Source: an uncultured Anaerolinea sp. | Lineage (GTDB): Bacteria > Chloroflexota > Anaerolineae > Anaerolineales > Villigracilaceae | DNA length: 64,000 nucleotides | Direction: 5' to 3' | NCBI GenBank assembly: GCA_964517905.1 | Contig: CAZFDL010000001.1 | Location: forward strand, 294-64,293 | In this document: in pieces, positions 9,896-39,454 of the stretch | Layout of the letters: each line of letters begins with the position of its first letter | Numbering within the stretch: position 1 is the first letter of the stretch | The notes under the pieces: model-generated | Databases searched by the model: none | Told to the model about the DNA's origin: nothing | The model's input: only the letters and a program-made list of their open reading frames with translations | Made by a program: the position numbers and the translations under genes

Positions 9896-9967
9896 GCGGG
9901 TGTAGTTCAGTGGTAGAACGCTTGCTTCCCAAGCAAGATATCGTGGGTTCGAGTCCCATCACCCGCT
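9896..9967 (+). tRNA. tRNA-Gly (anticodon CCC); 3' CCA not encoded
   Basis: Acceptor GCGGGTG/CACCCGC, D arm GTTC/GAAC, anticodon arm CTTGC-TTCCCAA-GCAAG, T loop TTCGAGT. Confidence 0.97.
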
Positions 9968-9975
9968 CAGGTTGG

Positions 9976-10085: not shown

Positions 10086-10478
10086 ATGACCCCGAGCTCT
10101 AAAGGCACCATCTTATATGTGGAGGACAACCCCGAGAATCGGATGCTTGTCCGACGCGTCTTGAACGCGGAGGATTACGCATTGCACGAAGCCACGAACG
10201 CCGGCCAGGCGTTGGATCTTTTGCGCTCCAGCCAGCCCGATCTGATTCTCATGGACATCAACATGCCCGATATGGACGGGTATACGCTGACCGCGCAGAT
10301 CAAAGCGATGCCCGGGTTCGAACGAATTCCCATCATTGCCATCACTGCCAACGTCATGCGGGGTGACCGCGAAAAAACGCTGGAGGCAGGTTGCGATGGC
10401 TACATCCAAAAACCGATCGATATCGACCATTTAACACGTGAAATCGAAAAATTCCTGGCGAGGAGAACCAATGCCTGA
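10086..10478 (+). CDS. Single-domain response regulator (DivK/CheY-like)
   Basis: YVEDN, LILMDINMP, TAN, YIQKP; GAGG RBS. Confidence 0.92.
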   Translation: MTPSSKGTILYVEDNPENRMLVRRVLNAEDYALHEATNAGQALDLLRSSQPDLILMDINMPDMDGYTLTAQIKAMPGFERIPIIAITANVMRGDREKTLEAGCDGYIQKPIDIDHLTREIEKFLARRTNA

Positions 10479-10914
10479 AAACGTACTGGACACTCAACCC
10501 ATTCGCAAACCGACCATCCCAAAGGATGCGACGGTCCTTGTGGTAGAAGATAATGTCGCGAACTTCGTGTTGATCGCGCGCATGCTGGGCTACCTGGGGA
10601 TCCATTGCGAGTGGAAAACCTCCGGGTATGAAGTCGTGGAATACGCGGATACCCTTTCCCGTCTCGATTTAATCCTGATGGATATACGGCTCCCCTACGA
10701 AGATGGCTACGGCGCTTTGAAAAAAATCCGCGCATCTGAAAAATTACGATCGATCCCGATCGTTGCCGTCACAGCAGAGGCCAGTACCGAACAAATGAAC
10801 AAAGCCAGAGACTCGGGTTTTGACGGTTTCCTTGGGAAACCTCTCGATCCCGATAAATTCCCGGATCAAATCCGTCGCATACTAAATGGAGAATCGGTCT
10901 GGGAATTCAGTTAG
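10471..10914 (+). CDS. Single-domain response regulator
   Basis: VVEDN, LILMDIRLP, TAE, FLGKP; ATG at 10471 after AGGAG, 8-nt overlap. Confidence 0.9.
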   Translation: MPENVLDTQPIRKPTIPKDATVLVVEDNVANFVLIARMLGYLGIHCEWKTSGYEVVEYADTLSRLDLILMDIRLPYEDGYGALKKIRASEKLRSIPIVAVTAEASTEQMNKARDSGFDGFLGKPLDPDKFPDQIRRILNGESVWEFS

Positions 10915-10932: not shown

Positions 10933-13053
10933 ATGAGTGAAAACACACCCGAAGGAACCGCGTTCTTTGTCACGGCTTATTTTGTCGCCAACGCCGACCG
11001 CCTGCAACTCGCCCAATTTTCAGACCCGCGAGAGCGAGAATCGCAGACGACGATGCCGCGCGTCGACGAGCTATCGATTAGCGAGGTTGAAACCCACTTG
11101 AAAGACGGGGTCCTTAGGGTGGATGAATCCGTTGCTACAGCGCTCCCTTCATCTTTGGCTACCTACCCGCGCCAGTTCGATTGCGAGAGCGCCGCCTTCA
11201 TACCGGTTCATCATAACGACAGATTGCAGGGATTGGTGATGGTCGGCGCACGCATGGGTCAGGCGATTCCAAATGGACTGATCGATGCGTTCCGTCGCGC
11301 GATTCGGCTGGCCGTCAATGTGACTGCAAAAGCGGGCACATCCGCTGAGACATTCGCGAACGATCGGCGCGCCCGCGAATCTCGGGCATTGAGTCTGCTC
11401 GCGTCGAATGCGGCAACCGTCAGTGATTTACGGACGTTTTACTCCTCGGTCCACGATCAGTTCCGAAGTGTGATCGGTGATTACAGTTTTGTGATCGCAC
11501 AGTACGACGCGAGCACTAATTCTATCGGGATCCCCTACTTATTTGAAGACGGTCGGTTCTCATCCCTGGATCCTTTCCCGCTCGGGGAAGGATTAACATC
11601 GCTCCTCATTCGAACCAAAGAGCCTTTGCTGCTAGTGGAGGATACGGAGAAACGTGCGATTGCCATGGGTGCAAAAATCTCTGGTAAGCCGGCAAAATCG
11701 TGGATGGGTGTTCCCCTGTTAGCGCGTGGCGAAGCCATCGGCGCCATCATCGTTCAGCACCTCGACAAAGAACTCGCCTTCAATGAGGACGATCTTCACT
11801 TCGCAACGAGCGTCGCGAATCAAATCGCTGGCACCATTCACAACATCCGCCTCCTACAGGCAAGTCAACAGCTTGCCCTGCAATTTGAAACGGCTGCTGA
11901 AATCGCACGCGACATCAGCGGTTCGCTAAACCTGGATGAACTTCTGCTCAAGGCTGTCGAGTTGATCCGCTCGAGGTTTCATTTCTATCACGCCGCCGTC
12001 CTGCTAAAAGACCTGCCCGGTGAATACGTTGTGGTGCGCGAAGCGACTGGCGAAGCGGGGGCACAACTCAAGCGGTCAGGTTTCAAATTGCAAGTGGGAT
12101 CGAGATCGATCATCGGCTCTGTGGCTGACAAAGGTGAGGTCCTGGTCGCAAACGATGTAACCCGTGATTCGTTCTATCTGGCCCATCCCTCGTTGCCTGA
12201 TACCAAATCCGAAGCCGCCATCCCGTTGAAAGTCGGCGATCGAATTCTCGGCGCGCTTGATGTGCAGAGTGACCGAGCGTACGCGTTCTCGAGTGATAAC
12301 TTGCGCATCCTCCAGATCCTTGCGGATCAATTGGCAATTGCAGTCATCAACACCGAATTATTCGCCGAAACACAGGAACATCTCGCACAGCACCGATTGC
12401 TCCATCACATCACCACCACCGCGGCCTCAGGAACCACACTGGATGATGCGCTCCGCTCCGCGGTGAACGGCCTACAGGTTACTTTGGGGGGCGATCGGGT
12501 GGCCATCCTGCTGATCGATCGGGAGAAAAAGAATCTCGAAGTCAAGGCAGCGGTGGGATATTCGGAGGACGTGTACCGGAGCGCGATTCCCATTGGCAGC
12601 GGCATCACCGGCTGGAGCGCCTTACATCGGCGCCCTTTACGCGTAAACAACGTACTGCTGGATTCGCGCTACATCGAAGCAAGTTCCAACACACGATCAG
12701 AGCTAGCAATCCCTCTGATGTATCGCGGCGAACTTCTGGGCGTACTCAATGTGGAAAGCGAAATCGTCTCGGCGTACGCCGAGAATGACGAGGAACTCCT
12801 GGGCACGTTGGGTGGCAGTCTAGCGGCTATTATCGCGAACGCGCGGCTGCTCGAACAGATCCGCTCACAAGCCGAACGCGAACGGGTGCTCTTCGAGATC
12901 ACAGACAAAATTCGACGTACAACCGATATGCAAACTATCATTGCCACTACCGCCAGTGAGCTAGCCCGCGCCGTCGGAGCTAGTGGTGCACGAATCAAAC
13001 TCGGAGCCGACCCATTAAATACCCCTCATCGAACGGGAGGCAACGATGAATAG
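10933..13053 (+). CDS. Soluble multi-GAF protein (about four GAFs) ending in an N-terminal half-GAF tail; no output domain
   Basis: Repeated GAF motifs (SWMGVPL..IGAIIVQ, SEAAIPL..LGALDVQS, SELAIPL..LGVLNVES); no TM segment; ends RERVLFEITDKIRRTTDMQTIIATTASELARAVGASGARIKL. Confidence 0.85.
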   Translation: MSENTPEGTAFFVTAYFVANADRLQLAQFSDPRERESQTTMPRVDELSISEVETHLKDGVLRVDESVATALPSSLATYPRQFDCESAAFIPVHHNDRLQGLVMVGARMGQAIPNGLIDAFRRAIRLAVNVTAKAGTSAETFANDRRARESRALSLLASNAATVSDLRTFYSSVHDQFRSVIGDYSFVIAQYDASTNSIGIPYLFEDGRFSSLDPFPLGEGLTSLLIRTKEPLLLVEDTEKRAIAMGAKISGKPAKSWMGVPLLARGEAIGAIIVQHLDKELAFNEDDLHFATSVANQIAGTIHNIRLLQASQQLALQFETAAEIARDISGSLNLDELLLKAVELIRSRFHFYHAAVLLKDLPGEYVVVREATGEAGAQLKRSGFKLQVGSRSIIGSVADKGEVLVANDVTRDSFYLAHPSLPDTKSEAAIPLKVGDRILGALDVQSDRAYAFSSDNLRILQILADQLAIAVINTELFAETQEHLAQHRLLHHITTTAASGTTLDDALRSAVNGLQVTLGGDRVAILLIDREKKNLEVKAAVGYSEDVYRSAIPIGSGITGWSALHRRPLRVNNVLLDSRYIEASSNTRSELAIPLMYRGELLGVLNVESEIVSAYAENDEELLGTLGGSLAAIIANARLLEQIRSQAERERVLFEITDKIRRTTDMQTIIATTASELARAVGASGARIKLGADPLNTPHRTGGNDE

Positions 13054-19050: not shown

Positions 19051-19051
19051 C

Positions 19052-24202: not shown

Positions 24203-26733
24203 GCGCCGACCAGATCATTCTCATTCTCTCGGCACTCATCGGCTTGGGAATCCTGCTGGTAATAGCGGAGCCCATCAGACCCCTTCGAAATATCTCCTTG
24301 CGCGCGCGCGTGGCTCTCGGCATTTTAGCCTCCGGTGGAGTCGCCATTGGAATCGTATCAATTTTCGCTGCAAGTAGTGCGGTTCAAATCACCGACTCGC
24401 TATCCCAACGACTCGAAACCAGCGTTCAACTCCTTGCGGAGGAACAGCTGATCAATTCCGTGAGCACCGAGGCTGGCAATGCAAACCAGTCCTTCGAGAA
24501 GATTGAAAGTGATATTGTGGAATTGGCTACCCATTGGAGCGGGCTTTATGCGGAACAGAATGCACTCGGTGAAGGCGGATATTGGGACGCCTCCACGGAA
24601 ATGGTGCAACTGGAGGGCGGACATTATGGGAATTCAGCGGACGATCCATCATCTGTTTATGTGCCTGCCAAGATCCGGTTAAGCGAGTCCGTGCTGAAAG
24701 ACCTCAACACATCGGCTTATCTGGATTTCGCCGCACCCTCCACCCTCGCATCCAATCCCAGTGTACTTGCCGTGTATGGAATCGATACTCGCGGCGTCAC
24801 CCGTTATTTTCCCAACATTAACCTGGCGTCTTTGCTACCGCCGGATTTCGATCCGACGCAGCGCGCCTATTACCGAATCACCTCTCCACTCTTCAATCCG
24901 TCCAGGACGGCGCGCTGGGCGATTCCGTATTTGGACGCGGCCGGAGGCGGGCTGGTTGTGACCGTTGCTGCCCCGGTGTATGTCGGCGACACCTTCAAAG
25001 GTATCGTTGCGGCTGACATGCAACTCTCCACGATCACAAACCAGATCGAACACATCAAGATCGGCCAGACCGGTTACGCGTTCATGATCGACGACGCAGG
25101 ACGCATCATCTCCATGCCGTCTGCCGGGTACCAGCTATTCGGCCTCAATCCGGACGATGTCAATTCTGAGGAGTACTTCAAGATCACGTTACTCGGCGCG
25201 GGTCCGCCGGAACTTGTCGAGATCTCCAACCGCATGGTTGCCGGCGGAACCGGTTTGATCATACTTCCCGTGGAGGGTATCGATACGTATCTCGCATTTG
25301 CACCGATACGGTCGAACGGATACAGCGTAGGCATCGTCGTACCCGTGGCTGAACTTCAAACCGCGACCATCACTGCGCGCAACGAAACCCGGACCCAACT
25401 CGAGGCTGCTGCACGAGTCGCCGCCCTCATTCTGGTTGGTTTGTTGCTCGTGGCGGTGTTGGTCAGCCTGCGCCTCAGTCAACGCATCACAGCTCCGATC
25501 CTTAGGTTGACCGAGACGGCGAATAGCATCGTGGCCGGCGACCTCACCGCGACAGCCGCGGCAGAGTCGCGCGACGAGATCGGAACGCTTGCGAAGGCGT
25601 TCAATACCATGACGCGCCGATTACGGGAAACACTCGCAGGACTCGAACAGCGCGTATCAGAACGCACGTCTGAATTGTCCGAAGCCGGCAAGCAGATCGA
25701 ACAACGCGCGGCACAGCTCGAAACGATCGCTCGTGTGGCGCACACAGTAGGCTCGACGCGCGACCTCGATGCACTGCTTCCAGAGATCGCTGCTGCCATC
25801 AGCAGACAGTTCGGCTTTTACCATGTGGGCATTTTCCTCCTTGACCAGCGCCGGGAATATGCTGTATTGAGCGCAGCGAACAGCAAGGGCGGGCAGAAGA
25901 TGTTGGAAAACAACCACAAACTCAAAGTGGGAGAGACCGGCATCGTCGGATTCGTCACAGGCACAGGCAAAGCTCGCGTGGCCCTCGACACGGGTGCGGA
26001 TGCGATCTTCTTCAACAACCCGTTCCTGCCCGAGACGCGTTCAGAGATCGCCCTCCCGCTTCTGGCGGGCTCAGAGGTGATCGGCGCGCTGGATGTGCAA
26101 AGTACCGAGTCGAATGCCTTCGGAGAGCAAGACACGAATCTCCTCTCGATCCTTGCCGACCAGGTTAGCGTCGCGATTCAGAATTCGATGCAACATGAGC
26201 AAACTCAGCGAGCTCTTGCAGAAGCGGAATCGCTTTCACGTCAACTCATTCGTTCCGGCTGGCAGGCTTTTTCGAAGGGCCGGAAGTTGATCGGCATCCG
26301 CCACTCGGGAGCACGGGCGACCTTTCTCTATGCTAAAAGGAATGGCAGGCAAGCCGATGATTCCAAGATCGTTGACAGTGAGTCTTTTTCGAAACCCCGA
26401 GGCGCGCTACTTTCGATTCCCATCAAACTGCGCGGCGAGGTGATCGGTACCGTCGACGTTCGCTCCCCCGGCAACCGCCGCTGGGACCAGGATGAAATGG
26501 ATATCGTCTCGGCCATAATCGAACGAGCCGCACTCGCGCTTGAGAATGCGCGCTTCCTCGAGGAAAGCCAGAAGCGGGTTGCCAAGGAGCAGACCATAGG
26601 CGATATTTCTGCAAAGATTAGCGCCCACGGAACTGTGGAAAACCTGATCAGAACCGCCGCAATGGAACTTAGCCGATCGCTCCCGGGCGCTGAGGTTGCC
26701 ATTCAATTCAATCAGAAGCCGGAGGTTGAATGA
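24199..26733 (+). CDS. Sensor 7: dCache_1-like domain, HAMP, GAF, split-GAF tail
   Basis: FDPTQRAYY..PYLD..VVTVAAPVY..GIVAAD..GQTGYAFMID; HAMP; GAF; ATGA overlap. Confidence 0.9.
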   Translation: MSADQIILILSALIGLGILLVIAEPIRPLRNISLRARVALGILASGGVAIGIVSIFAASSAVQITDSLSQRLETSVQLLAEEQLINSVSTEAGNANQSFEKIESDIVELATHWSGLYAEQNALGEGGYWDASTEMVQLEGGHYGNSADDPSSVYVPAKIRLSESVLKDLNTSAYLDFAAPSTLASNPSVLAVYGIDTRGVTRYFPNINLASLLPPDFDPTQRAYYRITSPLFNPSRTARWAIPYLDAAGGGLVVTVAAPVYVGDTFKGIVAADMQLSTITNQIEHIKIGQTGYAFMIDDAGRIISMPSAGYQLFGLNPDDVNSEEYFKITLLGAGPPELVEISNRMVAGGTGLIILPVEGIDTYLAFAPIRSNGYSVGIVVPVAELQTATITARNETRTQLEAAARVAALILVGLLLVAVLVSLRLSQRITAPILRLTETANSIVAGDLTATAAAESRDEIGTLAKAFNTMTRRLRETLAGLEQRVSERTSELSEAGKQIEQRAAQLETIARVAHTVGSTRDLDALLPEIAAAISRQFGFYHVGIFLLDQRREYAVLSAANSKGGQKMLENNHKLKVGETGIVGFVTGTGKARVALDTGADAIFFNNPFLPETRSEIALPLLAGSEVIGALDVQSTESNAFGEQDTNLLSILADQVSVAIQNSMQHEQTQRALAEAESLSRQLIRSGWQAFSKGRKLIGIRHSGARATFLYAKRNGRQADDSKIVDSESFSKPRGALLSIPIKLRGEVIGTVDVRSPGNRRWDQDEMDIVSAIIERAALALENARFLEESQKRVAKEQTIGDISAKISAHGTVENLIRTAAMELSRSLPGAEVAIQFNQKPEVE

Positions 26734-28454
26734 TCAGAAAATTCTTCAGCCCGCCGGTACTCAGAAGCAGTGAAGATAACTTCCGCGCGCGGTTTATCAA
26801 CGGGTTTGCATGGGCTGCCGTTGGCTTGTTGACCATTGCGCTCATCACGTATCTCTTCGCACCGTCCGGCGACCTTACCATCGCAATATTGTCTGGTTTG
26901 ATTGTCGTGCTTCTCACCGCGCTCTTCACCTTGAGGCGCGGCAATGTATCCGCGAGCGCCTGGATGATCGTCGGGCTGGGCTGGTTAGGGATCGGTATTC
27001 AAGCACTCACGGCGGATGGCGTAAAGGATGTTATTGTCGTAGCCTATATCGCCATTGGACTTCTGGCAAGCATCGTAATCAGTCATCGCGCCGGCAGTTT
27101 GGTGATTCTCGCCGGCATTGCCGCCGTCGCCGTGCTCTCACTTCGCGAAGCATATGGACTGTTCGTACCGCGTGAACAAGACCCAATTGCGTACGGACGC
27201 GACCTGGGATTCATCTTCTTTGCGATTTTGATTCTGATTTATTTCAACACCACCAGCCTGCGCGATGCAATCACCCGCGCCAACAAAAGCGAGGAGAGTT
27301 TGCGCGCCTCCAACGCATCACTGCGGGAATTGAACCAGACGCTCGAGGAGCGTGTTGTCACCCGCACGACGGAATTGGAGCAGGCCAATAGGCGGTACGA
27401 ACGCCGCGCACGACGGTTCGAGGCGATCGCGCAAGTGGCGCGCGCAGCCGCGGCGAACCAAACCCTCGAAGACCTCCTGGCTTTGCTCGTGCAAGTGATC
27501 GGCGAGAAGTTCGAGTATTATCACGCCGGAATTTTTCTGCTGGATGACAACCGCGAGCACGCAGAACTTCGAGCCGCGAACAGCGAAGGCGGGCGACGCA
27601 TGTTGAGCCGAAATTATCGAATTCATATCGGGCAAACCGGTATCCTCGGCGTGGTTGCCGCCACAGGTGAACCCCGCATCGCTCTGGACACAGGAGCTGA
27701 CGCGGCTTTCCTCAACGACCCCGACCTCCCCGACACACACTCACAGATGGCGCTGCCGCTCAAAGCCGCGGGAGTGGTGATCGGCGTGCTGGATATCCAG
27801 AGCACGGAACCGAACGCATTCTCGGAGGACGATATCGAAGTGCTTTCCACACTATCCGATCAGGTCGCCACCGCAATTCAGAACGCCCGTTATTACGAAT
27901 CGACTCAGGAATTGGTGGAGGAAGCGCAACGCGTGACCGGAGCATATCTGCAAGATTCGTGGCACACTCTCCAGGCACAGGAACGCTTGATTGGATTCGT
28001 TGCCGATGGCACGTCCGTCAAGCCGTCCGATCAACCCGTTGATAGCGCGCTGTTGTCAAAAGTCTCATTGCGCGACCAGCCCTTCGTCGAAAATGGCGAG
28101 AAGCCCCGCATCGCCGTACCGCTGCGCCTGGCTGGGAACGTGGTTGGGATCCTTAACATTAATCTTGATGAAGATCATGAGTGGGAGAACGACGAGATCG
28201 ATATCGCAAAAGCGGTCGCCGACCGTCTGTCGCTCGCGCTTGAAGCCGCGACACTGCTTGAGACGACACAAAAACGCGCCGAGATCGAGCGGCTTACAGC
28301 GGACATCACCGGCAAGATCGGCTCCACTACCCAGTTCGATTCCATCCTGCGGACGGCGGCGGAGGAATTGAGCCACGCATTCGGCGGATCTGAGGTATTG
28401 GTCCAGATCCAGCCGTCCTCAAATTCACACCGATCCGAGCATACGACTTCATGA
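26730..28454 (+). CDS. Sensor 8: PPVF-type multi-TM domain, coiled coil, GAF, split-GAF tail
   Basis: SPPVLRSSEDNFRA; TMs; GAF; tail; ATGA overlap. Confidence 0.88.
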   Translation: MIRKFFSPPVLRSSEDNFRARFINGFAWAAVGLLTIALITYLFAPSGDLTIAILSGLIVVLLTALFTLRRGNVSASAWMIVGLGWLGIGIQALTADGVKDVIVVAYIAIGLLASIVISHRAGSLVILAGIAAVAVLSLREAYGLFVPREQDPIAYGRDLGFIFFAILILIYFNTTSLRDAITRANKSEESLRASNASLRELNQTLEERVVTRTTELEQANRRYERRARRFEAIAQVARAAAANQTLEDLLALLVQVIGEKFEYYHAGIFLLDDNREHAELRAANSEGGRRMLSRNYRIHIGQTGILGVVAATGEPRIALDTGADAAFLNDPDLPDTHSQMALPLKAAGVVIGVLDIQSTEPNAFSEDDIEVLSTLSDQVATAIQNARYYESTQELVEEAQRVTGAYLQDSWHTLQAQERLIGFVADGTSVKPSDQPVDSALLSKVSLRDQPFVENGEKPRIAVPLRLAGNVVGILNINLDEDHEWENDEIDIAKAVADRLSLALEAATLLETTQKRAEIERLTADITGKIGSTTQFDSILRTAAEELSHAFGGSEVLVQIQPSSNSHRSEHTTS

Positions 28455-30766
28455 ATCGAATTCTTCAATCACTGGATAATTGGTTTAAGGGTCTCACCTA
28501 CCCTAGAAAATTTACCGTGATCACGGTCATCTTCCTATTACCCGTGATCGCGTTCCTGCCGCTGATCGGCAATGAAGTCGACCGAATTGATCGATACGGC
28601 ACCGGCGAACTCTTCGGCACCCTTTATACGCGTCCGCTTTGGAAAACCGCGAACGATCTGTACCTGCATCAGGTTCTATCCGCCAAGGTTGTCAATGGCG
28701 AGATGGAATCGGGGGCGCTCAAGACATTGCAGGCGACAATCGACACAGGCTTCGATGAGATCGAGTCTCGTCAACGACAAGAAGTCCTCTCCACGCCCTA
28801 TCAAAGCGAAGTAGCCGCCTTCCGGACACGCTGGATCAGTATCCGAGATTCGCTCCCGAATGCCGACGCGGCGGAGGTACAGGCGCAGCATCAGGAGTTA
28901 ATCCGCGACTTCAACTCCTTGATCATCCGTGTGGGCGAGGATTCGAATCTTGTTCTTGACCCCGACCTGGACACGTATTACTTGATGGATATCGTGCTTT
29001 TCGAAATACCGGAAAACCAGACGTTGATTTTCGAAATTTACAAATTGGCGAGCCCGGCGCAAGCCGACCAACCTCTTTCTGCGCGCGAACAGGAACAGAT
29101 AGCCAACCAGATGGAAGCCATCCAATCGAACATGGCGCAGATCGACCGCAAGATCGGTGTTGTACTCGCTAACAACATCAACGGAGACTTGGAGCCCATT
29201 ATTCTCCCCGCGTGGGACGATTACAAGGCACAAGTTCAGGCTTATGCGGACTTCGTTCAAGATCACATACTCGCCGGATCGCCAGACGGCTCCGTTTCTA
29301 TGAATCTTCAAGCTTTCGAGGTTATGCATAAGGCTAATCAGGATTTCTATACAGCTGCCTCGACCACACTTCAGACCGGCGTGTCAGCGCGCGTGAACTC
29401 ATCCATCCTTCGTTTTTACCCCATCGCTCTCGTTGTTTTAGCGAGCATTGCTGGCGCATTCCTGTTGGGGCAAAGTATCATGAGCTCAATTAGTCAACCT
29501 CTGGCACAGTTGATCGAAGCTTCTCAGCAACTCGCGGCAGGTGATCTATCCACCCGCATCTCAGTGCAAGGCTCTGGCGAGCTCGAAAAGGTGTCGAGGG
29601 CTTTTAACAAGATGGCAGCTGATCTGGAAACTGAGAAAACATCCCTTACCCACCATGCAGAAGAATTGGAGACCGCCAATCAGATCAACGCGAACCGCGC
29701 TCGAGAGTTTCAGTTTATCAGCGAGATATCTCAGATTATTGCGCAGGAACAAAAACTCGATATCCTCCTGCCTTTGATCACCCAGCTTGTAAGCGAAAAA
29801 TTCAATTTCTATCATGTTGGCATATTCCTCCTGCACGAGAGTCACAAATACGCCGTGTTGCAAGCCGCCAACAGCGAGGGCGGGCAACGTATGTTAAAGC
29901 GAGGTCATCGCCTTGAACTTGGGACCGGGATCGTAGGCAATGTTGCCCGCTCAGGTTCCTACCGCGTCGCCTCCGATGTTGGATCTGATGCCACATTCTT
30001 CGACAACCCTGACCTGCCTGCAACCCGTTCCGAAATGGCGATTCCTTTGCAGACGCGTGGTGTGACGATCGGCGTGCTGGATGTACAAAGCACTCGGCCG
30101 GGAGAATTCAACGAAAACATCGTCAATACTTTGAGCATTCTTGGCGATCAGATCGCCATTGCCATCGAGAACGCCCGGCTTTTTGCCAGGACGCAACAGG
30201 CGTTGAACGAATTGCAGGCCGTCTACAACCAATATCTACAGAAAGAATGGCAGGCATTCCGCAACCGGTCTGCCCATATCGGTTACCATCATTTGGGCAC
30301 GAGCGGCATGCTGCTCCAGTCTCCGATCGAATCGGATGAGTTTCAGAAAGTCCTTCAGCGTGGCGAAAGAACTGTCGGCAATAAAAATGGCTCGGAGTCC
30401 GAGCCCAGCATGACAGTTCCAATCAAATTGCGGGGCGAGACCATCGGTGTTTTAAACATCAAATCTCCGGAAAAGAGCCGCGAGTGGAGCCGGGATGAGA
30501 TCAACATGATCGAATCCGTTGCGCAACGCCTTGCGCTAGCACTGGAGAATGCCCGGCTGTTCGAAGAAACGAACCGGCGCGCAGAGCGCGAACGGCTGGT
30601 TTCAGAGATCACTGGAAAGATTCGCAGCGTGAACGACCCGCAAGAGATGATCGATACTGCCCTTGTGGAATTGCGAAACGTGTTGGGCGCGAGTCGCGTC
30701 CAGGTGATTCCGCGGCTGCCACACGGAAACACTACTCAAAACAAAACGAACAGCGAGGAAGCATGA
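28451..30766 (+). CDS. Sensor 9: helical extracytoplasmic domain (LDPDLDTYYL motif), HAMP, GAF, split-GAF tail
   Basis: Two TMs flanking a helical region of about 280 aa; HAMP; GAF; tail; ATGA overlap. Confidence 0.88.
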   Translation: MNRILQSLDNWFKGLTYPRKFTVITVIFLLPVIAFLPLIGNEVDRIDRYGTGELFGTLYTRPLWKTANDLYLHQVLSAKVVNGEMESGALKTLQATIDTGFDEIESRQRQEVLSTPYQSEVAAFRTRWISIRDSLPNADAAEVQAQHQELIRDFNSLIIRVGEDSNLVLDPDLDTYYLMDIVLFEIPENQTLIFEIYKLASPAQADQPLSAREQEQIANQMEAIQSNMAQIDRKIGVVLANNINGDLEPIILPAWDDYKAQVQAYADFVQDHILAGSPDGSVSMNLQAFEVMHKANQDFYTAASTTLQTGVSARVNSSILRFYPIALVVLASIAGAFLLGQSIMSSISQPLAQLIEASQQLAAGDLSTRISVQGSGELEKVSRAFNKMAADLETEKTSLTHHAEELETANQINANRAREFQFISEISQIIAQEQKLDILLPLITQLVSEKFNFYHVGIFLLHESHKYAVLQAANSEGGQRMLKRGHRLELGTGIVGNVARSGSYRVASDVGSDATFFDNPDLPATRSEMAIPLQTRGVTIGVLDVQSTRPGEFNENIVNTLSILGDQIAIAIENARLFARTQQALNELQAVYNQYLQKEWQAFRNRSAHIGYHHLGTSGMLLQSPIESDEFQKVLQRGERTVGNKNGSESEPSMTVPIKLRGETIGVLNIKSPEKSREWSRDEINMIESVAQRLALALENARLFEETNRRAERERLVSEITGKIRSVNDPQEMIDTALVELRNVLGASRVQVIPRLPHGNTTQNKTNSEEA

Positions 30767-31548
30767 CATATTCAATCGCAGTTTCAAACGAAAAGGGCGG
30801 TGTGGCCAAGACCACAACTACGCTCTCGCTTGGTGCCGCCCTGGCTGAGCTTAACTCTCGCGTCCTTTTGATCGACCTCGACCCGCAAGCGAACCTGAGC
30901 CTTGCGCTTGGGCTGGAAACCGGCGAGGCGGAAATCACTTCCGCCAATGTAATGATCGAAAATACGCCGATAAAATCGGCCATTCGCAAGACCGATGTGG
31001 CGAATCTCGAACTCATTCCGTCGAACTCTCGCATCGAAAGCGCGGAGCAATACCTCCCCATGCGCAGTAATTATCTCACGACGCTCCGGCAAGCCATTCT
31101 CGCAGGCACATTGAACTACGACTATATCTTCTTCGATTGTCCTCCGGCGCTTGGTGCGATCACGCTCAATGCCCTCTCCGCCTCCGATCTGCTTGTGATT
31201 CCCACCCAAGCGGAATACTTTTCAGCGTATGCGTTGAGGAACATGATGGGCTCAATCCGTCGCGTTCGGCAGGAAAGCAACCCCAATCTTGCATATCGCA
31301 TTCTCGTTACCCTGCTGGATCGCAGGAACCGAACCCACCGCAATATATTCGAGCAGTTGCAGACCACGTTCGGTCAAGGCGTTTTTACCACCGTCATCGA
31401 GATCGATACAAAACTCAGAGAAAGCCCCATCGCCGGAATGCCGATCACTCAGTATCGCCCTACAAGCCGGGGCTCGCAACAGTATCGCGTCCTTGCCCAG
31501 GAGTTAATCGAATATGTCAAAGAAGAAACCAGCCGACAAACGGCTTGA
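30763..31548 (+). CDS. parA: Orphan ParA/Soj family ATPase
   Basis: Deviant Walker A KGGVAKTT, IDLDPQAN, FDCPP; no parB in the window; ATGA overlap. Confidence 0.92.
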   Translation: MTYSIAVSNEKGGVAKTTTTLSLGAALAELNSRVLLIDLDPQANLSLALGLETGEAEITSANVMIENTPIKSAIRKTDVANLELIPSNSRIESAEQYLPMRSNYLTTLRQAILAGTLNYDYIFFDCPPALGAITLNALSASDLLVIPTQAEYFSAYALRNMMGSIRRVRQESNPNLAYRILVTLLDRRNRTHRNIFEQLQTTFGQGVFTTVIEIDTKLRESPIAGMPITQYRPTSRGSQQYRVLAQELIEYVKEETSRQTA

Positions 31549-34500
31549 AAAACTTTTTCAAAACATAACTCCTGAAGAAACAACCTCCGAACCGAGGCCT
31601 GCCGGCCGCCAGCGGGTGGTGGAAAAGGTGGATATCCCACCGTCGGTTCCCCGCGCGTCAAAGAGATCAGTTTCACCTCCGACGCGTCCCCTGGAGTTGA
31701 TTCCGAGTCCCGCTCAACAGAGTCCTGAAATCTCGCTTGCGTTTCAAGTGGGACAAAATAATTGGGCGACGTTGCAAGTGCTGGATGAAAACCACGAGAA
31801 GAAATGGACTCCAGACGATGAGTTGCTCGTCAGACAAGTGGTGGACCAACTCTCGCTCGCACTGGAAAATGCCCGCTTATTCAAGGAAACGGAAACACGA
31901 GCACGAGAAGTCTCCGTTTTGAACGAGGTCGGACAGGCGCTTGCCGCGACACTGAATATCCAACAGATCATTGAGACCACATATAACGGCATCTCGCGGC
32001 TGTTCGATGCCAGGAACTTCTACATTGCGCTCTACGACGAATCAACGAACGAGATCCTTTTCCCTCATAATGTGACCGAATCCGTGGTGGATCGCTCCAT
32101 CACCCGCCTGCCTTTGGACAAGGGCATCACTGCACACATGATTCGTACGCGTGAGAGCGTCCTGATCTCGGATGGGAGCGATACGTGGATGCTCGCGCGC
32201 GGAGAAACTCCGGTCGGCGAGTCGGCACAATCTTTCCTCGGCGCGCCGCTCATCGCAGGCGACAAGGTCCTTGGCGCTATTGCGCTGCAGGATTACGAAA
32301 TTTCGCACAAATATGATGAGCACGACCTAAAACTCCTGACCTCATTCGCCAGTCAGGCTGCGATCGCGATCGAAAATGGGCAGCTATTCGAGAAAGCGAC
32401 GGCAAGTCAGGCAACACTTTCCGAAGCACTGCGTATCGCCAGGATCGGATACTTCGAGATCGACGTGGTTACCCAAGTCATAACGATCACCGATGAGTTG
32501 TTCGCCATCCTCAATACCTCCGTGGAACAGGAAGGAGGGCAGCAATTTCGTGCGCGCGATGCGCTGCGTAAGTTCGTCAGCGCGGATGATTACACGGTCG
32601 CGATCAAGGCTTACGAAAAGGCGATCAAGACCGGTAAACAGCGAAACGAGGTGGCCGTGGAGGCGCGATATCGCACCCGCGACGGCCGAACAATCTGGGT
32701 CAACACCACCTACAAGGCCGAACTCGACGAGAAGGGACGCGTTTACAAAGTCGCAGGATCGTCACAGGACATCACCGAACGAAAAATCAACGAGTTGATC
32801 CAGGCTGCGATCACAGAGATATCAGAGGCAGCATTAACAGCATCGGACTTGTCGGGATTAATCCAGACAGTGCATAAGGCGGTGGGCACTCTCGTACCGG
32901 CGCGCAATTTCTACATCGCGCTGTACGACCCCCAAGCCGACCTAATGACGTTCCCCTATTACGTGGACGAACATGATGCCACTATGCCGCCCCAAAAACT
33001 TGGAGGCGGACTCACCAGTTACGTGATCCGCACTGGAAAAGCGCTGCGGGCGACACCGGAGATTTACGCCGAACTGGCTCAAGCGGGCGAAGTGGTCAGC
33101 GGAGGCACCGCCGGAGCGGATTGGCTGGGCATTCCGTTGCGGAACGAATCAGCGGTCCGCGGCGTACTGGCGGTTCAATCCTACGATAACGCGGTGCGAA
33201 TTACGCAGCACCACCAGGAAATTTTAACCATCCTGGGTACCCAGGTATCGGCTTCCATCGAACGGTTACTGGCGAGAGAAGCGCTCGCCAAGTCGGAAGC
33301 CGATCTGCGCGCCCTCTTTTCCTCAATGCAGGATGTGGTACTAGTGGTTGATAAAGACACACGCTATATCCGCATCGCACCAACCAATCCATCGCGTCTG
33401 TTCCGCCCCCCGGATGAATTGCTCGGCAGGAGGATGGACGAATTATTGCCCCCCGAAACACATGAACAGTTTCGCGCAGCAATCCATCGTGCGCTTCAAT
33501 CGAACGAGGTGGTTCAGATCGAATACCAATTGCCAATCGAAGGACACCTATATTGGTTCCTCGCCAACCTCTCCCGGCTCAACGAGAACGAAGTATTTTG
33601 GGTCGCCCGTGATATTACGGAGCGCAAGAAGTCCGAAGAGGCGCTCCAAAGGCGAAATACTTACCTGGCTATCTCCGCTGAGATCGGGAAGTTGGTCACT
33701 TCTACGCTCGACCTGAACAAGATCTTTTCAGAGACCGTGATTCGTGTGAAAACGGGTTTTGATGTTTATTTCGCCGCTCTCTACAGCATCGAAGAAACTG
33801 GTTTCAACGCCGTTTTACGCGGGGCAACCGGGGAAGCCGGTGATCAAATGATCGCGGCAAAACATTCGGTGACAATCGGATCACAGAACATCGTTGGCTT
33901 GGTGGCCGACACCGGAACCGCCAGGCTGATCGAAGATGTGAGCACGGAACCTTTGTATCAACCCAATCCACTCCTGCCTGAAACTCGCTCCCAGGTGGTG
34001 ATTCCCCTTCGGATCGGTACGCGCATCGTAGCGGTACTTGAGATTCACTCCGACCGAGTGCATGCCTTCACGGAAGACGATATCTCGGTGCTTCAACTGC
34101 TAAGCGACCAGGTCGCAGTGGCGATCGACAATGCCCGATCATATGAATTGTCACAACAACTGATCAAGGACCTGCGCGAAGTGGACAAATTAAAGAGTCA
34201 GTTCCTTGCAAATATGAGCCACGAACTTCGGACACCGTTGAATTCCATTATCGGGTTCTCGCGGGTAATCCTCAAGGGCATCGATGGTCCTATCACAGAT
34301 TTGCAGCAACAGGATCTAACCGCGATCTACAATTCAGGCCAACACCTGCTAGGCTTGATCAACGACGTACTCGATCTTGCCCGCATCGAAGCCGGCAAAA
34401 TGGAATTGAACTTCGAGGAAGTCAACCTGGCCGACATGATACAAAGCGTCCTTTCGACCGCCAAGGGTCTCGTTAAGGAAAAACCGATTCAGCTGGTTGC

Positions 34501-35647
34501 CAACGTTCCAACTGCCACACTGGCCGTGCGCGGCGATGCCATGCGCATTCGCCAGATATTTATCAACCTGCTTTCGAACGCCGCCAAATTTACAGATGAA
34601 GGCACGATCACGGTTGCGGCACAGAACCAGAAGGGACCCGATGGAATGACAGAGGTCATCATACGAGTTACAGACACCGGACCGGGTATTTCGAGTGAGG
34701 ATCAAGAAAAACTATTTAAAGCGTTTTCGCAAGTGGATGGTTCAGCCACGCGCAAAAGCGGCGGTACCGGGTTGGGTCTCTCGATCTGTTCCAATCTCGT
34801 TCAACTCCATGGAGGGCGCATTGGCGTCACCAGTGAAGCGGGCTATGGTTCAACCTTCTGGTTCACCCTGCCTCCCTTTCATCAACCTCTGGATGAAATT
34901 CCGGCTGATCGGAAGATCATCGTTGCCATCGACGATGATCCCAAGGTGATCAGCCTTTATGAAAGATACCTCGCTCCGCAGGGATATTATATTGTTCCAT
35001 TCATCGAAGCCAAAGGCGCGAAGGAACGGATCGCGGCCATCAAGCCGATTGCCATCACGCTGGATGTAATGATGCCGAACGTCGACGGCTGGACGCTTCT
35101 TTCGGACTTGAAATCTGATCCAGCGACCCGTGACATCCCAGTTATCATCTGCTCGATCCTCGAACAGGCCGATAAAGGCTTCAATCTGGGCGCGTCTGAT
35201 TACCTCATCAAACCCATCCTCGAGGAGGATCTTGTTCACGCCTTCAAACGGTTGGATAAAAAAGGCGAGATCCGCAATATCCTGGTGATCGATGACAATG
35301 CGGACGATCGCAGGCTCATACAAAAGATCCTGGAGGAGCATGGAAAGTATGATGTTACCGTAGCAGACGGAGGCCGTCAGGGTTGGGATGCAATAAAGGC
35401 AACTCCTCCTCACGCTGTCATCCTCGATCTGTTTATGCCCGATTGGGATGGTTTTGTCGTTCTCGAAAAGCTTCGTGACGATCCTGCCCTCCGTAATCTG
35501 CCAGTGCTGGTCATCAGCGGAGGCGGTTTAAACCCGGACCAGCAGAAAAAAATGCAGGAGTTTGGAAAGCGCCTGCTCATTAAGGGAACGTTGAAGGAAA
35601 GCGAACTTATCTCAAGCATCGAGCAAGCGTTGATGGCTCTTGGTTGA
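31514..35647 (+). CDS. Hybrid histidine kinase: N-peptide, half-GAF, GAF, PAS, GAF, PAS, GAF, HisKA, HATPase, two REC domains
   Basis: FLANMSHELRTPLNSIIGF, NLLSNAAKFT, DTGPGI, GGTGLGL; PAS ends QDITERK and RDITERK; two intact receivers; no TM segment. Confidence 0.95.
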   Translation: MSKKKPADKRLEKLFQNITPEETTSEPRPAGRQRVVEKVDIPPSVPRASKRSVSPPTRPLELIPSPAQQSPEISLAFQVGQNNWATLQVLDENHEKKWTPDDELLVRQVVDQLSLALENARLFKETETRAREVSVLNEVGQALAATLNIQQIIETTYNGISRLFDARNFYIALYDESTNEILFPHNVTESVVDRSITRLPLDKGITAHMIRTRESVLISDGSDTWMLARGETPVGESAQSFLGAPLIAGDKVLGAIALQDYEISHKYDEHDLKLLTSFASQAAIAIENGQLFEKATASQATLSEALRIARIGYFEIDVVTQVITITDELFAILNTSVEQEGGQQFRARDALRKFVSADDYTVAIKAYEKAIKTGKQRNEVAVEARYRTRDGRTIWVNTTYKAELDEKGRVYKVAGSSQDITERKINELIQAAITEISEAALTASDLSGLIQTVHKAVGTLVPARNFYIALYDPQADLMTFPYYVDEHDATMPPQKLGGGLTSYVIRTGKALRATPEIYAELAQAGEVVSGGTAGADWLGIPLRNESAVRGVLAVQSYDNAVRITQHHQEILTILGTQVSASIERLLAREALAKSEADLRALFSSMQDVVLVVDKDTRYIRIAPTNPSRLFRPPDELLGRRMDELLPPETHEQFRAAIHRALQSNEVVQIEYQLPIEGHLYWFLANLSRLNENEVFWVARDITERKKSEEALQRRNTYLAISAEIGKLVTSTLDLNKIFSETVIRVKTGFDVYFAALYSIEETGFNAVLRGATGEAGDQMIAAKHSVTIGSQNIVGLVADTGTARLIEDVSTEPLYQPNPLLPETRSQVVIPLRIGTRIVAVLEIHSDRVHAFTEDDISVLQLLSDQVAVAIDNARSYELSQQLIKDLREVDKLKSQFLANMSHELRTPLNSIIGFSRVILKGIDGPITDLQQQDLTAIYNSGQHLLGLINDVLDLARIEAGKMELNFEEVNLADMIQSVLSTAKGLVKEKPIQLVANVPTATLAVRGDAMRIRQIFINLLSNAAKFTDEGTITVAAQNQKGPDGMTEVIIRVTDTGPGISSEDQEKLFKAFSQVDGSATRKSGGTGLGLSICSNLVQLHGGRIGVTSEAGYGSTFWFTLPPFHQPLDEIPADRKIIVAIDDDPKVISLYERYLAPQGYYIVPFIEAKGAKERIAAIKPIAITLDVMMPNVDGWTLLSDLKSDPATRDIPVIICSILEQADKGFNLGASDYLIKPILEEDLVHAFKRLDKKGEIRNILVIDDNADDRRLIQKILEEHGKYDVTVADGGRQGWDAIKATPPHAVILDLFMPDWDGFVVLEKLRDDPALRNLPVLVISGGGLNPDQQKKMQEFGKRLLIKGTLKESELISSIEQALMALG

Positions 35648-35691
35648 CGTGACCATGAACAATCCATAATGGAATAGGACACTGACCACAC

Positions 35692-37368
35692 ATGTTATTT
35701 GTCATACGATGTCTTGATTGCGGGCATGCCGCGCCTTTCATGCCGCGCTCGATGCATTGCCCAAACTGCAACAGCCAATGGCGCGAAGCGGAATACGATC
35801 TGAAGGAAGTGGCCAACACATTTCCGTCACAACTTCCGAACCGCAGGTTTGACCTTTGGCGGTATCGTGAACTGCTTCCGATCCATACACTGAACCCGAC
35901 TTTGCAGCTTGGAGAGGGAGGCACGCCCCTCATCAAGGCTGCAAACCTGGGAAACATGCTGGGTCTGCCCAATCTCTATATCAAAGATGAGAGGCAAGGA
36001 CCAACTTCATCCTTCAAAGACCGGCAAGCGGCAGTTACGATCGCGGCGCTTAAAGAAGGCGGCGTAACCGAGATGGTAGCCGCATCGACGGGCAATGTTG
36101 CCATCGCCTTATCGGCGTATGCTGCGCGGGCTGGCATCAAATTGTGGGCGTTTGTCACCAGCCTCGTCCCCGGCGTGAAGATGCGTGAGATCGCACTTTA
36201 TGGAAGTCAGGTGGTGAAGATCACTGGCTCGTACGACCAGGCTAAACAGGTCGCCGCGGAGTTCGCCCGCCAACGCGGTTTGTACCAAGATATGGGTGCC
36301 CGCACAGTGACAGCAGTGGAGGCGATGAAAACGATCGCCTTCGAAATCGCAGAACAATTGACGATGGAGGAAGGAGGCGTACCCATACCGCTGGGAGCGA
36401 GTCCAAAATGGAAAACTCCCGACTGGTATCTTCAAGCTGTTAGCGGTGGGATGGGTCCGCTCGGCGTGTATAAAGGCTTTCGCGAACTGAAACAACTCGG
36501 CCTAATCGATCGTATCCCGGCGCTGGTTCCCATTCAGGCGGAGGGTTGCGCACCGATGGTCGATGGTTGGAGGAAGGGTCTTGAAAAAGCAGAACCAGTC
36601 CTCTCGCCGAACACACGGATCGAAACGCTCGCCACGGGCGACCCCGGCAGAACCTACACAATGCTACGCCAACAGGTGATCGAAACCCATGGAACCTTCG
36701 AAAGCGTCTCTGATGATGAAGCCTTCCGTGCCATGCACGTACTCGCCAAACTCGAGGGTATCTCGGCTGAACCCGCCGCCGCCGTGGCGTTCGCGGGTTT
36801 GTTCAAACTGGTCCGGGCAGGAGTGATCAAATCCACAGACACGGTGGTGGTCAACTGCACCGGGCACACGCTGCCTGCGGAACAATTTTTGTTCGATGAG
36901 AATTGGACGCGCGAGGTGGATTACCCCGGCGCAATGGCTCAATCGGAAACACCTCAAGAAGGTTTGCTGGCCGCGCTCAATAACGTGACCCCGAACCGCT
37001 TCCCGCGCGTCGCCGTTGTGGACGACAGCGCGGAGGCGAGGCGATTAATCCGGCGCATCCTGCAATCACAAGGCGATTTCGAGATCTTTGAGGCAGTGGA
37101 TGGGAGTGAAGCCATCGAGCTTGTGAAGCGCGAACATCCTGATATTGTCATTCTCGACCTGATGATGCCTGAAGTGGACGGCTTTGCCGTCCTTGATGCG
37201 TTGCGGAGTGATCCGGAAACGGCAAATATACCGGTGATCGTTGCCACCGCAAAGGAGTTGACCGTCAACGAAAAAAGCCGGTTGCAGGGGCAGATCCAAT
37301 CGCTGATGCAAAAAGGCGATTTCTTGAACGATGAGTTCCTGGATGAAGTCCGCGCACTGATCCGATAA
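35692..37368 (+). CDS. Threonine-synthase-like PLP enzyme with N-terminal Zn ribbon and C-terminal receiver domain
   Basis: CLDC..CPNC; LGEGGTPL; PTSSFKDR (PLP lysine); ASTGN; C-terminal VVDD..ILDLMMP..TA..QKG. Confidence 0.9.
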   Translation: MLFVIRCLDCGHAAPFMPRSMHCPNCNSQWREAEYDLKEVANTFPSQLPNRRFDLWRYRELLPIHTLNPTLQLGEGGTPLIKAANLGNMLGLPNLYIKDERQGPTSSFKDRQAAVTIAALKEGGVTEMVAASTGNVAIALSAYAARAGIKLWAFVTSLVPGVKMREIALYGSQVVKITGSYDQAKQVAAEFARQRGLYQDMGARTVTAVEAMKTIAFEIAEQLTMEEGGVPIPLGASPKWKTPDWYLQAVSGGMGPLGVYKGFRELKQLGLIDRIPALVPIQAEGCAPMVDGWRKGLEKAEPVLSPNTRIETLATGDPGRTYTMLRQQVIETHGTFESVSDDEAFRAMHVLAKLEGISAEPAAAVAFAGLFKLVRAGVIKSTDTVVVNCTGHTLPAEQFLFDENWTREVDYPGAMAQSETPQEGLLAALNNVTPNRFPRVAVVDDSAEARRLIRRILQSQGDFEIFEAVDGSEAIELVKREHPDIVILDLMMPEVDGFAVLDALRSDPETANIPVIVATAKELTVNEKSRLQGQIQSLMQKGDFLNDEFLDEVRALIR

Positions 37369-38384
37369 TGACGGAACTAAACGAAACACCGGACAGTGTC
37401 AACGAGGTTACCTACCCTTCGTTGATGTTGAAATCCCGATTAATGCATAAAATGAAAATCCGGGGAATTAATGCTGCGCTCCTCTCCGCAGTGTTTCTCG
37501 GTATGGCGCCGGTCCTAGGCAAGGTGGCCATGGGGGCAGACAAATTCACGCCCTTGGCGGTCGTAGCATTGCGCACCAGCATAGCAGCACTGCTTCTTGT
37601 ACTCATTCTTGCGATCATTAATCGCCGCGCTTTATATATCTACCCGGCAGCCTTGTACATCACCGCTCTCGCCGGCGCGATCAACGGCGTTGGCTCCATC
37701 TTTTTCTACATTGGCTTGAGTCGATTGAACGCGAGCGTTGCGCAATTGTTATATTCGCTATATCCATTCTTTGTGGCATTTTGGCTCCAACTGGACCGGC
37801 AACCCCCCACTCGTCTTACGATATTCAGAATCGGAATTGCGATCGTCGCCGTGTTTTTCCTAACACAGGGCACAACCGGGACCGTTGATCCTGTCGGCGT
37901 GACTTTGATGCTGGTCGCGGCGGCCTTGTATGCGCTTCACCTTCCGATCAATCAACGCGCCTTGTACGATGTTCCCGCGCCAACCGTTACTGTTTATACA
38001 TTGCTAGCAATGAGCGCGGTCGTGGTACCCGCCTACCTGATCTTCGACGGCAGCCCGCCCGGGGAGTACGCGCCGTGGACGCCCTTGCTGATGCTCACTG
38101 CAGTTACTTTCTTCTCGCGCCTGACTCTCTTCCTCGGCGTCAAACACATCGGCGGGATGCAGACGGCTCTACTCGGATTGGCGGAACTGATCGTCGCCAT
38201 CGCGTTCAGTCACTTCCTTTTGGGCGAAAAGTTCACTGGGCTTCAATGGGTGGGCATGGCGGTCTTGGGCTTCAGTCTTCTCTTGGTTTGGTTCGAAAAG
38301 CCTCCTTCGCATCCACCACCCACTCACGGTCTACTCGGTTGGCTTCAACCGCCAGACTTCCCTAAAGATTTTTACAAGCACTAA
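37368..38384 (+). CDS. DMT/EamA family transporter
   Basis: About ten TMs in two repeats, LLGE motif; TAATG coupling (start may lie at a later Met). Confidence 0.85.
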   Translation: MTELNETPDSVNEVTYPSLMLKSRLMHKMKIRGINAALLSAVFLGMAPVLGKVAMGADKFTPLAVVALRTSIAALLLVLILAIINRRALYIYPAALYITALAGAINGVGSIFFYIGLSRLNASVAQLLYSLYPFFVAFWLQLDRQPPTRLTIFRIGIAIVAVFFLTQGTTGTVDPVGVTLMLVAAALYALHLPINQRALYDVPAPTVTVYTLLAMSAVVVPAYLIFDGSPPGEYAPWTPLLMLTAVTFFSRLTLFLGVKHIGGMQTALLGLAELIVAIAFSHFLLGEKFTGLQWVGMAVLGFSLLLVWFEKPPSHPPPTHGLLGWLQPPDFPKDFYKH

Positions 38385-38418
38385 GAAACCCTTTCGAAAA
38401 TCCGTTATACTCTCCAGC

Positions 38419-39267: not shown

Positions 39268-39454
39268 AACCGAAGATGGCGATGATCACGCCAAGATGCA
39301 GGAACAGATTGCTCCCCGTGATCACATTCAAGCCAAAGATGAAGGGCAGTATAAAGTTGATCACCACCAATAACATACCGACAATCGGCAACAAGCCCTT
39401 ACGATGGGCAAAATAATTCGATGCGTTGTCGATCAAATGCGACAGCCATTTCAT
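39245..39454 (-). CDS. Small two-TM membrane protein
   Basis: ATGA overlap with hflX; two hydrophobic helices. Confidence 0.65.
   Translation of the reverse strand: MKWLSHLIDNASNYFAHRKGLLPIVGMLLVVINFILPFIFGLNVITGSNLFLHLGVIIAIFGFMLAWAL

Follow-up and report, generated by a model that had tools for sequence, protein, structure and literature searches.

A ParA-type ATPase distinct from chromosomal Soj and a ParB-like tag on the adjoining histidine kinase: a probable positioning pair in an Anaerolinea sensor operon

Results

A ParA-type gene within a sensor-kinase operon

The 64,000-nucleotide stretch of DNA analysed here (the window), from an uncultured Anaerolinea sp. (assembly GCA_964517905.1, contig CAZFDL010000001.1), carries a long operon of GAF sensors and a hybrid histidine kinase, and the gene of a ParA-type ATPase, the subject of this report, lies between the last sensor gene and the kinase gene (Table 1). 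The comparisons described below suggested that this ATPase likely binds a ParB-like helix at the start of the kinase and probably positions the sensor-kinase complex in the cell. The window's own assembly, G000, comprises 347 contigs with 2655 proteins and is 93% complete.

The ATPase matched Pfam AAA_31 (E 6e-50), and its nearest solved structures were ParA/Soj proteins (8ray, E 6.7e-46); when modelled as an imposed dimer, it gave a predicted local distance difference test score (pLDDT) of 91. A sequence-only reading of the window had noted that the gene overlaps both neighbours and that parB is missing, and both observations were borne out. The preceding sensor ends at 30766, sharing 4 nucleotides (ATGA), and the kinase starts at 31514, sharing 35 nucleotides; GAGG/AGGAG was present upstream of the ParA and kinase starts. 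The ParB_N profile had no match in the window, and no parB or origin gene cluster adjoined the locus, the neighbours being a GAF sensor and the kinase.

Table 1. Features of the ParA-containing operon in the window
Feature	Position	Strand	Remarks
Two stand-alone receiver proteins, operon head	10086..10914	+	Domain matches
Soluble three-GAF protein	10933..13053	+	Ends in the same GAF-start tail as the sensors
Membrane GAF sensors 1-3, without output domain	13046-14989, 14993-16864, 16861-19050	+	
Membrane GAF sensors 4-6, without output domain	18992-20797, 20787-22484, 22517-24202	+	
Membrane GAF sensors 7-9, without output domain	24199-26733, 26730-28454, 28451-30766	+	
ParA-type ATPase, open reading frame (ORF)	30763..31548	+	261 amino acids, ATG start
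Deviant Walker A, K11-G-G-V-A15-K16-T17	30793..30813	+	Signature Lys and catalytic Lys invariant clade-wide
D38-x-D40	30874..30882	+	Counterpart of M. xanthus ParA catalytic D58/D60 (PMC12462528); 46/46 clade members
Basic patch R187-R193 with K217/R219	31321..31419	+	At/around Soj arginine positions
Soluble hybrid histidine kinase, GAF/PAS-HisKA-HATPase-REC-REC	31514..35647	+	1377 amino acids
Kinase tag, residues 7-15 (A-D-K-R-L-E-K-L-F)	31532..31558	+	Predicted ParA-binding peptide
Variable Pro/Ala/Lys/Glu-rich linker behind the tag	31559..31723	+	Pro 18-23%
C-terminal GAF part near the kinase N-terminus, residues 72-123	31727..31882	+	GAF model positions 117-167 of 168
Threonine-synthase-like pyridoxal-phosphate enzyme fused to a receiver, then EamA transporter	35692..38384	+	Conserved operon end

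The window ParA belongs to a clade apart from Soj

The ParA/MinD phylogeny proposed by the sequence-only reading as a check was carried out on Anaerolineae sequences (second tree; 59 rows, the simpler LG+G4 model, without ParC or PpfA). L040, a very long-branched ParA that lay inside the clade in the first tree, was left out. The 46 operon-type, tag-linked ParAs formed one group (support 99/99) and the nine ParB-linked Soj proteins another (100/98), and constraining the window ParA to group with Soj was rejected (approximately unbiased test, p-AU 7.6e-6). According to this tree, the window ParA falls in a clade of Anaerolineae sequences separate from chromosomal Soj.

Orthologues with 79-88% identity were detected in 22 of 24 genus relatives, and the gene order around ParA was the same in the loci fetched from them; judged by these alignments, the conservation is far beyond chance. 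In a sample of 151 genomes of the class, 25 had a match at E<=1e-70; with one of these set aside as a Soj that precedes a ParB-like ORF, 24 remained. Among 301 genomes sampled from the phylum, with eight candidates scored per genome, scores of at least 327 bits were obtained only in the window's family (20/20 besides G000) and in two genomes of the same order, every other genome giving at most 266 bits. The clade ParA was not found outside Anaerolineae in these 151 and 301 genomes. The named relatives were mostly Anaerolineales or Chloroflexota records, and the source names in two homologue searches were all Chloroflexota, most rows being without a name. Orthologues with 81-82% identity also occurred in records titled Bacteroidota and Syntrophothermus (L088, L098), for which transfer is less likely than mis-binning or mislabelling. 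In L074 and L075 (G022:C26) the operon was split into many short ORFs, as expected of assembly frameshift errors.

Two genomes of family f46, G155 (98% complete, two contigs) and G189, had no ParA match at E<=1e-30, not even at the level of Soj. Behind another orphan ParA group with its own tree branch (L045:11927-14138, L048:3088-5548) stands an unannotated membrane protein whose start is conserved (G-[RK]-G-[KR]-E-I-x-L-P-P) and which has a Pro-rich linker of acidic character; the two are probably a second tag-and-ATPase pair.

Catalytic and DNA-binding residues

The P-loop KGGVAKT, which the sequence-only reading had correctly located and called a variant, does not depart from the ParA/MinD hallmark KGGxxK[S/T] (PMC11407121, PMC9178275); SopA of the F-plasmid has KGGVYKT (PMC9178275, Table 1). 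Position 15 was Ala in 43 of 46 clade members and Gly in 9/9 Soj proteins. K11, G12, G13, K16 and T17 were invariant in an alignment of 106 rows, as were D38, D40 and the Walker B residue D125. Since the consensus is kept and the catalytic residues are invariant, the idea of a crippled or odd ATPase was rejected; on this alignment the Ala is a marker of the clade, not a defect.

In the basic patch, R188 was R/K and K217 was K/R in 46/46 clade members, and R236 was invariant across the clade. The mean net charge of residues 183-236 was +3.2 in the clade when compared with +0.6 in Soj, and the patch is predicted to be a non-specific DNA-binding face. A C-terminal amphipathic membrane-targeting sequence of the MinD type was not found in the window ParA, whose C-terminus is EYVKEETSRQTA, and the last ten residues contained on average 1.8 hydrophobic ones across the clade. 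Membrane binding of the MinD type was therefore rejected for lack of a targeting tail. A separate MinD-like protein of G000 is encoded on contig C8.

The chromosomal parAB is a separate locus in relatives

The sequence-only reading had named, as the case that would refute it, a ParA that is the genome's only Soj orthologue and works with ParB/parS. In G000 the window ParA was indeed the only Soj-like ParA, and ParB_N had no match anywhere in its 347 contigs; this profile matched in 40/40 family relatives. The relatives carry a second ParA, about 35% identical to the window ParA, and ParB came after that one in 7/7 loci scanned. In the near-complete genome G017, the operon-type and the ParB-linked ParA are 2.8 Mb apart, and parAB is flanked by yidC, jag, yidD and rnpA. 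A distinct chromosomal parAB, which the sequence-only reading had asked to be located, was thus found in relatives, and G000 has a gap at that place. The pfkB-like gene that precedes parA in relatives is broken off at the end of contig C177 (5928 of 5929), and the amidohydrolase gene that follows parB is broken off at the end of contig C199 (5249 of 5251). Because these flanking genes stop at contig ends where G017 has parAB, the parAB of G000 most likely falls in the C177-C199 assembly gap, which best explains the single Soj-like hit; on this gap, the proposal that the window ParA is the only Soj of the genome was rejected. With the parS consensus, one site with one mismatch was detected in G000 (C84:4757), and none within two mismatches in the window or in 11 loci; both results were uninformative.

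A ParB-like tag at the start of the downstream protein

The window kinase starts with M-S-K-K-K-P-A-D-K-R-L-E-K-L-F, followed by a variable Pro-rich linker and then the C-terminal part of a GAF domain. The hydrophobic residues of the tag are placed at i, i+4, i+7 and i+8 (phi-x3-L-x2-L-F), which is the spacing of L11/L15/L18/I19 in M. xanthus ParB, each of them required for ParA binding (PMC12462528). Beyond residue 22, identity of the linker to the consensus was 16-63%, mostly below 45%.

The downstream genes of 118 clade ParAs, 84 near and 34 distant, were scored for such a tag. The near set was obtained from 95 distinct ParAs after removal of three without a downstream ORF in the fetched DNA and one frameshifted, with seven moved to the distant set; the latter consisted of 36 loci minus two Soj. 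Six of the 118 N-terminal starts were set by hand, and L205-L222 were left out of the count, L221 alone being scored. The pattern [LIM]xx[LIF]F was found near the start in 117 of the 118 N-termini, and the remaining one had Phe in the first place. F at i+8 was present in 118/118 tags and L at i+7 in 116/118; in L221, V replaces L and the tag-profile score was low. With a profile of 31 distant tags, the window kinase ranked 5th among the 2655 G000 proteins, of which 69 contained a relaxed tag pattern at the same offsets. The N-terminus of the last sensor (28451-28495) scored 10.3, compared to 10.2 for the kinase, and is either a chance amphipathic helix or a second tag. The ParBs of these organisms carry L-G-[KR]-G-L-[DE]-A-L-I and had low tag-profile scores; by these profiles, the tag and the ParB helix have a common spacing and a different specificity.

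Kinase codons 1-12 lie within the overlap of 35 nucleotides, codons 11-12 providing the ParA stop. L14 and F15 of the tag lie beyond this overlap, and the motif persisted at loci with an overlap of 4-8 nucleotides (eight loci) or with none (five loci), so that an artefact of the overlap was rejected as the origin of the tag.

Structure prediction of the ParA dimer with ATP/Mg and kinase residues 1-32 gave a complex score of 0.39, the best of three controls giving 0.00. The runs agreed in at least 86% of contacts, with a pLDDT of at least 58 for the partner. In a benchmark, the mark for a complex was reached by 116 of 157 solved pairs and 2 of 215 mismatched pairs, the range up to 0.60 holding only 18 solved pairs and both mismatches. 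The predicted complex lends weak support to docking of the tag on ParA.

The tag occurs on proteins of different kinds

The gene following the clade ParA varied, encoding a kinase, a GAF sensor, CheW, MinC, an LCP (LytR-CpsA-Psr) protein or a stand-alone adaptor, and all of these were tagged. In other families the order was receivers, kinase, ParA and tagged sensor. Two basal members of the clade, in G108 and G149, preceded tagged CheW in che operons (L185:4723-6344, L186:9151-10705), both with CheA, CheY-type receivers and CheD, and that of G149 also with CheC, CheB, CheR and CheX. The tagged CheW proteins consisted of the peptide, a Pro-rich linker and the CheW domain. Both genomes also carry a second clade ParA in a GAF-sensor operon.

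In L187:7725-10202 (G111:C45), a second copy of the clade ParA was followed by tagged MinC, MinD and a RodA/FtsW gene, an arrangement in which a nucleoid-type ATPase possibly acts on a division inhibitor. In L188:7874-10356 (G143:C133), the clade ParA was followed by the tagged LCP protein, a cell-wall ligase. Behind a divergent clade ParA with the P-loop KGGVGKT, a stand-alone protein of 128 amino acids (L053:2405-2791, G025:C27) consisted of the tag, a linker and a partial GAF domain, and is possibly a free adaptor. Across the compared loci, the ATPase and the tag are constant and the cargo varies.

Operons that lack both ATPase and tag

Sensor tails, the partial GAF domains that end the sensors, were detected in 37 of the 151 class genomes, and 23 of the 24 class genomes with the clade ParA carried them. 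Five of the 14 genomes with tails and no clade ParA were examined. No ParA was hit on the operon contigs in any of the five, and no tagged member was found in these operons, where the best profile score was 3.0 and the kinases scored from -12.7 to 0.6. In four of the five operons, the kinase was directly followed by the enzyme-receiver gene, and N-terminal transmembrane segments were predicted in four of the five kinases. Among the ParA-less genomes, G155 is near complete, and G071 and G102 are fragmented. As operons without the clade ParA exist, the ATPase is accessory and not essential. In L247:14321-16189 (G048:C161), a sensor stands directly behind the kinase, in the place held elsewhere by ParA, and its Pro-rich start resembles a decayed tag.

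The operon and its partial GAF domains

The genes of the operon were separated by -59 to +44 nucleotides. A tRNA-Gly (CCC) gene lies just 5' of the operon (9896-9968), and promoter and terminator scans across 26000-40000 gave results at chance level. No RNA holder was listed for the stretch, which speaks neither way. No transmembrane segment was predicted in the window kinase. The threonine-synthase-like enzyme (35692-37368) carries two CxxC motifs in its N-terminal part and a receiver domain at its C-terminus. As the enzyme-receiver gene came after the kinase in the mapped relatives, including operons without ParA, it is a candidate for the operon's output.

Each of the nine sensors ends in a C-terminal GAF part followed by the first part of another GAF domain; the soluble three-GAF protein has the GAF start only, and the kinase the GAF end part only. 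The sensor tail, folded poorly from the single sequence (pLDDT 56), was modelled from an alignment of 134 rows with a pLDDT of 93 as a reduced GAF domain, most similar to the PDE5 GAF (best Z 8.2, root-mean-square deviation 2.7 over 80 residues), with one continuous helix of 45 residues, a short helix and an unpaired end. An Atlas search with the tail detected GAF clusters only. The partial GAF ends suggest assembly of sensors and kinase in trans, and such completion would join them and explain why one tagged subunit suffices; alternatively, the tail would be a self-contained cap.

Neither CheW nor MCP matched in G000 (93% complete), and CheW was found in only 2 of 40 family relatives, so that the window cluster is not a chemosensory array. 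Being encoded with MCP/CheW/CheA genes, as are ParC and PpfA, was seen for two sister members and not for the window locus.

Discussion

The sequence-only reading had proposed a cargo-positioning ParA engaged through the kinase N-terminus, and the comparison supported it because the chromosomal parAB is separate, the clade is separate, the tag has ParB spacing, sister members are paired with CheW, and the ATPase and tag are absent together. We therefore favour, as somewhat more probable than its rivals together, a dedicated non-Soj ParA that binds the kinase tag and places or partitions the sensor-kinase complex via the nucleoid. Following established ParA/MinD biology, ParA would dimerise with ATP, the ParA-ATP dimers would bind nucleoid DNA non-specifically, the tag would dock in a pocket at the dimer edge, and the cargo would be transiently tethered or spaced over the nucleoid. 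The most tentative steps are that complementary partial GAF ends would hold the nine sensors and the kinase in one complex, with one tag enough, and that the tag would stimulate ATP hydrolysis.

Several observations weigh against this positioning model. The ParB pocket was mapped by a gap-free alignment to 8ray, with an offset of 20 fixed by the D60A site. The positions of M. xanthus L150 and L155 were mostly hydrophobic in the clade, but that of V116 was K/Q/R in 45 of 46 members, that of L152 was A/T/P in 44 of 46, and that of L192 was mostly T/S. The Y81/E117 site, Y and E in 9/9 Soj proteins, was not conserved in the clade; the window ParA has Q96, A132, S172, A61 and Y97 at V116, L152, L192, Y81 and E117. 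In M. xanthus, this site is proposed to read ParB R13 (PMC12462528), a residue dispensable for binding and needed for ATPase stimulation (PMC12462528). A basic residue stood at i+2 in 76 of 84 near tags and in 11 of 34 distant ones. Because the R13-reading Tyr/Glu pocket is not kept, stimulation of the window ParA by the tag through the ParB route is doubtful; the remodelled pocket fits insulation from ParB. The complex score is weak and may reflect likeness to ParA-ParB, and the tag profile is not sharp, as the kinase was equalled or surpassed in score by the last sensor's N-terminus and by three unrelated proteins. The 118 loci are kin, so that their counts are not independent trials, and at the cut-off the clade ParA was missing from 14 of the 37 class genomes in which sensor tails occur. 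Membrane sensors are also hard to picture as the load of a nucleoid ratchet, and ParC of Vibrio, which has the basic residues, has not been seen on the nucleoid (PMC11407121).

A farther-reaching view, possible at a rather low probability, is that Anaerolineae have an equivalent of the chemoreceptor array without MCP, CheW or CheA, in which output-less sensors and one hybrid kinase polymerise by GAF completion and are positioned by an orthogonal ParA through a shuffled nine-residue tag. The tag would have been on CheW first, as in the basal members, and would later have moved to kinases, sensors, MinC and the cell-wall ligase; we give this history the same low probability. Another reading, which we consider unlikely, is that the ATPase binds the tag and regulates signalling as a nucleotide switch instead of working as a positioning motor; it would keep the kinase away from the sensors, or report on the state of the DNA or of the cell cycle. 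Such a switch would suit the survival of the operon without the ATPase and the remodelled activation pocket, and FlhG/FleN provide a family precedent of regulation by sequestration (PMC11407121). The kinases with transmembrane segments where ParA is missing (4/5), compared with none in the window kinase, also raise the possibility that the ATPase controls membrane access of a soluble kinase. However, a long variable linker keeps the tag at a distance from the kinase core, the L194 operon has a soluble untagged kinase while a sensor bears the tag, and CheW, MinC, the LCP protein and membrane sensors have no common activity to be switched; what they share is a need for placement.

Anchoring of the cluster at a fixed landmark such as the pole or septum, with the tag bound and no nucleoid movement, appears slightly more improbable than a switch. 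The higher charge of the basic face than in Soj, the invariant R236 and the lack of a landmark gene conserved beside ParA in the mapped loci speak against it, although nine cluster proteins are membrane proteins, the CheW-linked sisters show the ParC-ParP layout (PMC5706961), ParC keeps basic residues with no nucleoid binding seen (PMC11407121), and loss of the R13 pocket fits slow turnover. We consider it very unlikely that the kinase N-terminus is not the ligand of ParA, being a by-product of the overlap or a basic tail for DNA binding such as the one by which FrzCD attaches to the nucleoid (PMC5716589), with another partner for the ATPase. The N-terminus is Lys-rich in the near family and codons 1-12 do lie in the overlap with the ParA stop, but L14/F15 do not, the motif is kept at the loci with short or no overlap, in many of the distant tags, which are neutral or acidic, the hydrophobic spacing alone is retained, and tags are missing where the ATPase is missing. 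Least probable is chromosome partition with ParB/parS by the window ParA as the genome's Soj. The sole hit in the assembly, the Soj proteins among its closest solved relatives and the one-mismatch parS-like site on C84 are outweighed by the C177-C199 gap, the two ParAs of the relatives, the tree test and the changed ParB pocket residues.

If the positioning model is true, the ParA/MinD family gains a new class of cargo, and the sensors of an abundant and little-studied lineage work as a cluster under spatial control. One ATPase clade with a short tag on unrelated proteins would provide a natural test of the 'luggage tag' idea (PMC10241942), and the matched pocket changes would offer a minimal positioning pair orthogonal to ParB, assayable as one protein and one peptide. 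Reviews list chromosomes, plasmids, divisome, carboxysomes, flagella, chemoreceptor arrays and conjugation/pilus machinery as ParA/MinD cargo, and a conventional two-component kinase with its sensors is not among them in the review passages. This class of mechanism is known. In the literature searched, outside which most subscription papers lie, no account was found of the cargo, of the clade or of the mobile tag.

When compared with chromosomal ParA-ParB, the window system is alike in the catalytic residues, the basic DNA face and the i, i+4, i+7, i+8 spacing of the partner peptide. It differs as a separate clade of about 35% identity without ParB/CTPase or parS, with a tag ending in L-F, not L-I, and with the ParB pocket and R13 site remodelled. 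McdA-McdB also combines a nucleoid-type ATPase with a cargo-binding partner having an N-terminal peptide, an adaptor layout seen in the L053 protein; unlike the window ParA, in which the signature Lys is invariant, McdA lacks it (PMC9178275, Table 1), its similarity is weaker (E 3e-16), and its cargo is different.

The closest likeness is with PpfA and ParC, which position chemoreceptor arrays via the N-termini of their partners (PMC11407121, PMC10241942, PMC5706961). In PpfA-TlpT of Rhodobacter sphaeroides, a signalling cluster is partitioned over the nucleoid by an orphan ParA that engages the N-terminus of one of the cluster's components (PMC5706961, PMC9178275, PMC11407121); the cargo there is a cytoplasmic chemoreceptor array and the P-loop is KGGVGKT, in contrast to the two-component kinase with membrane sensors here. 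As in ParC-ParP of Vibrio and ParC-CheW of Halothiobacillus neapolitanus, the ParA-like ATPase is encoded in a signalling operon. In Vibrio ParP, the part that binds the ATPase is N-terminal, and a long Pro-rich linker connects it to the domain that joins the signalling complex (PMC5706961), a layout shown exactly by two clade members with CheW; the window differs in that a HisKA hybrid kinase surrounded by GAF sensors bears the tag, in an assembly in which CheW and MCP had no match. By analogy, the best reading is that the window ParA works like ParC and PpfA, from a locus outside the che operons.

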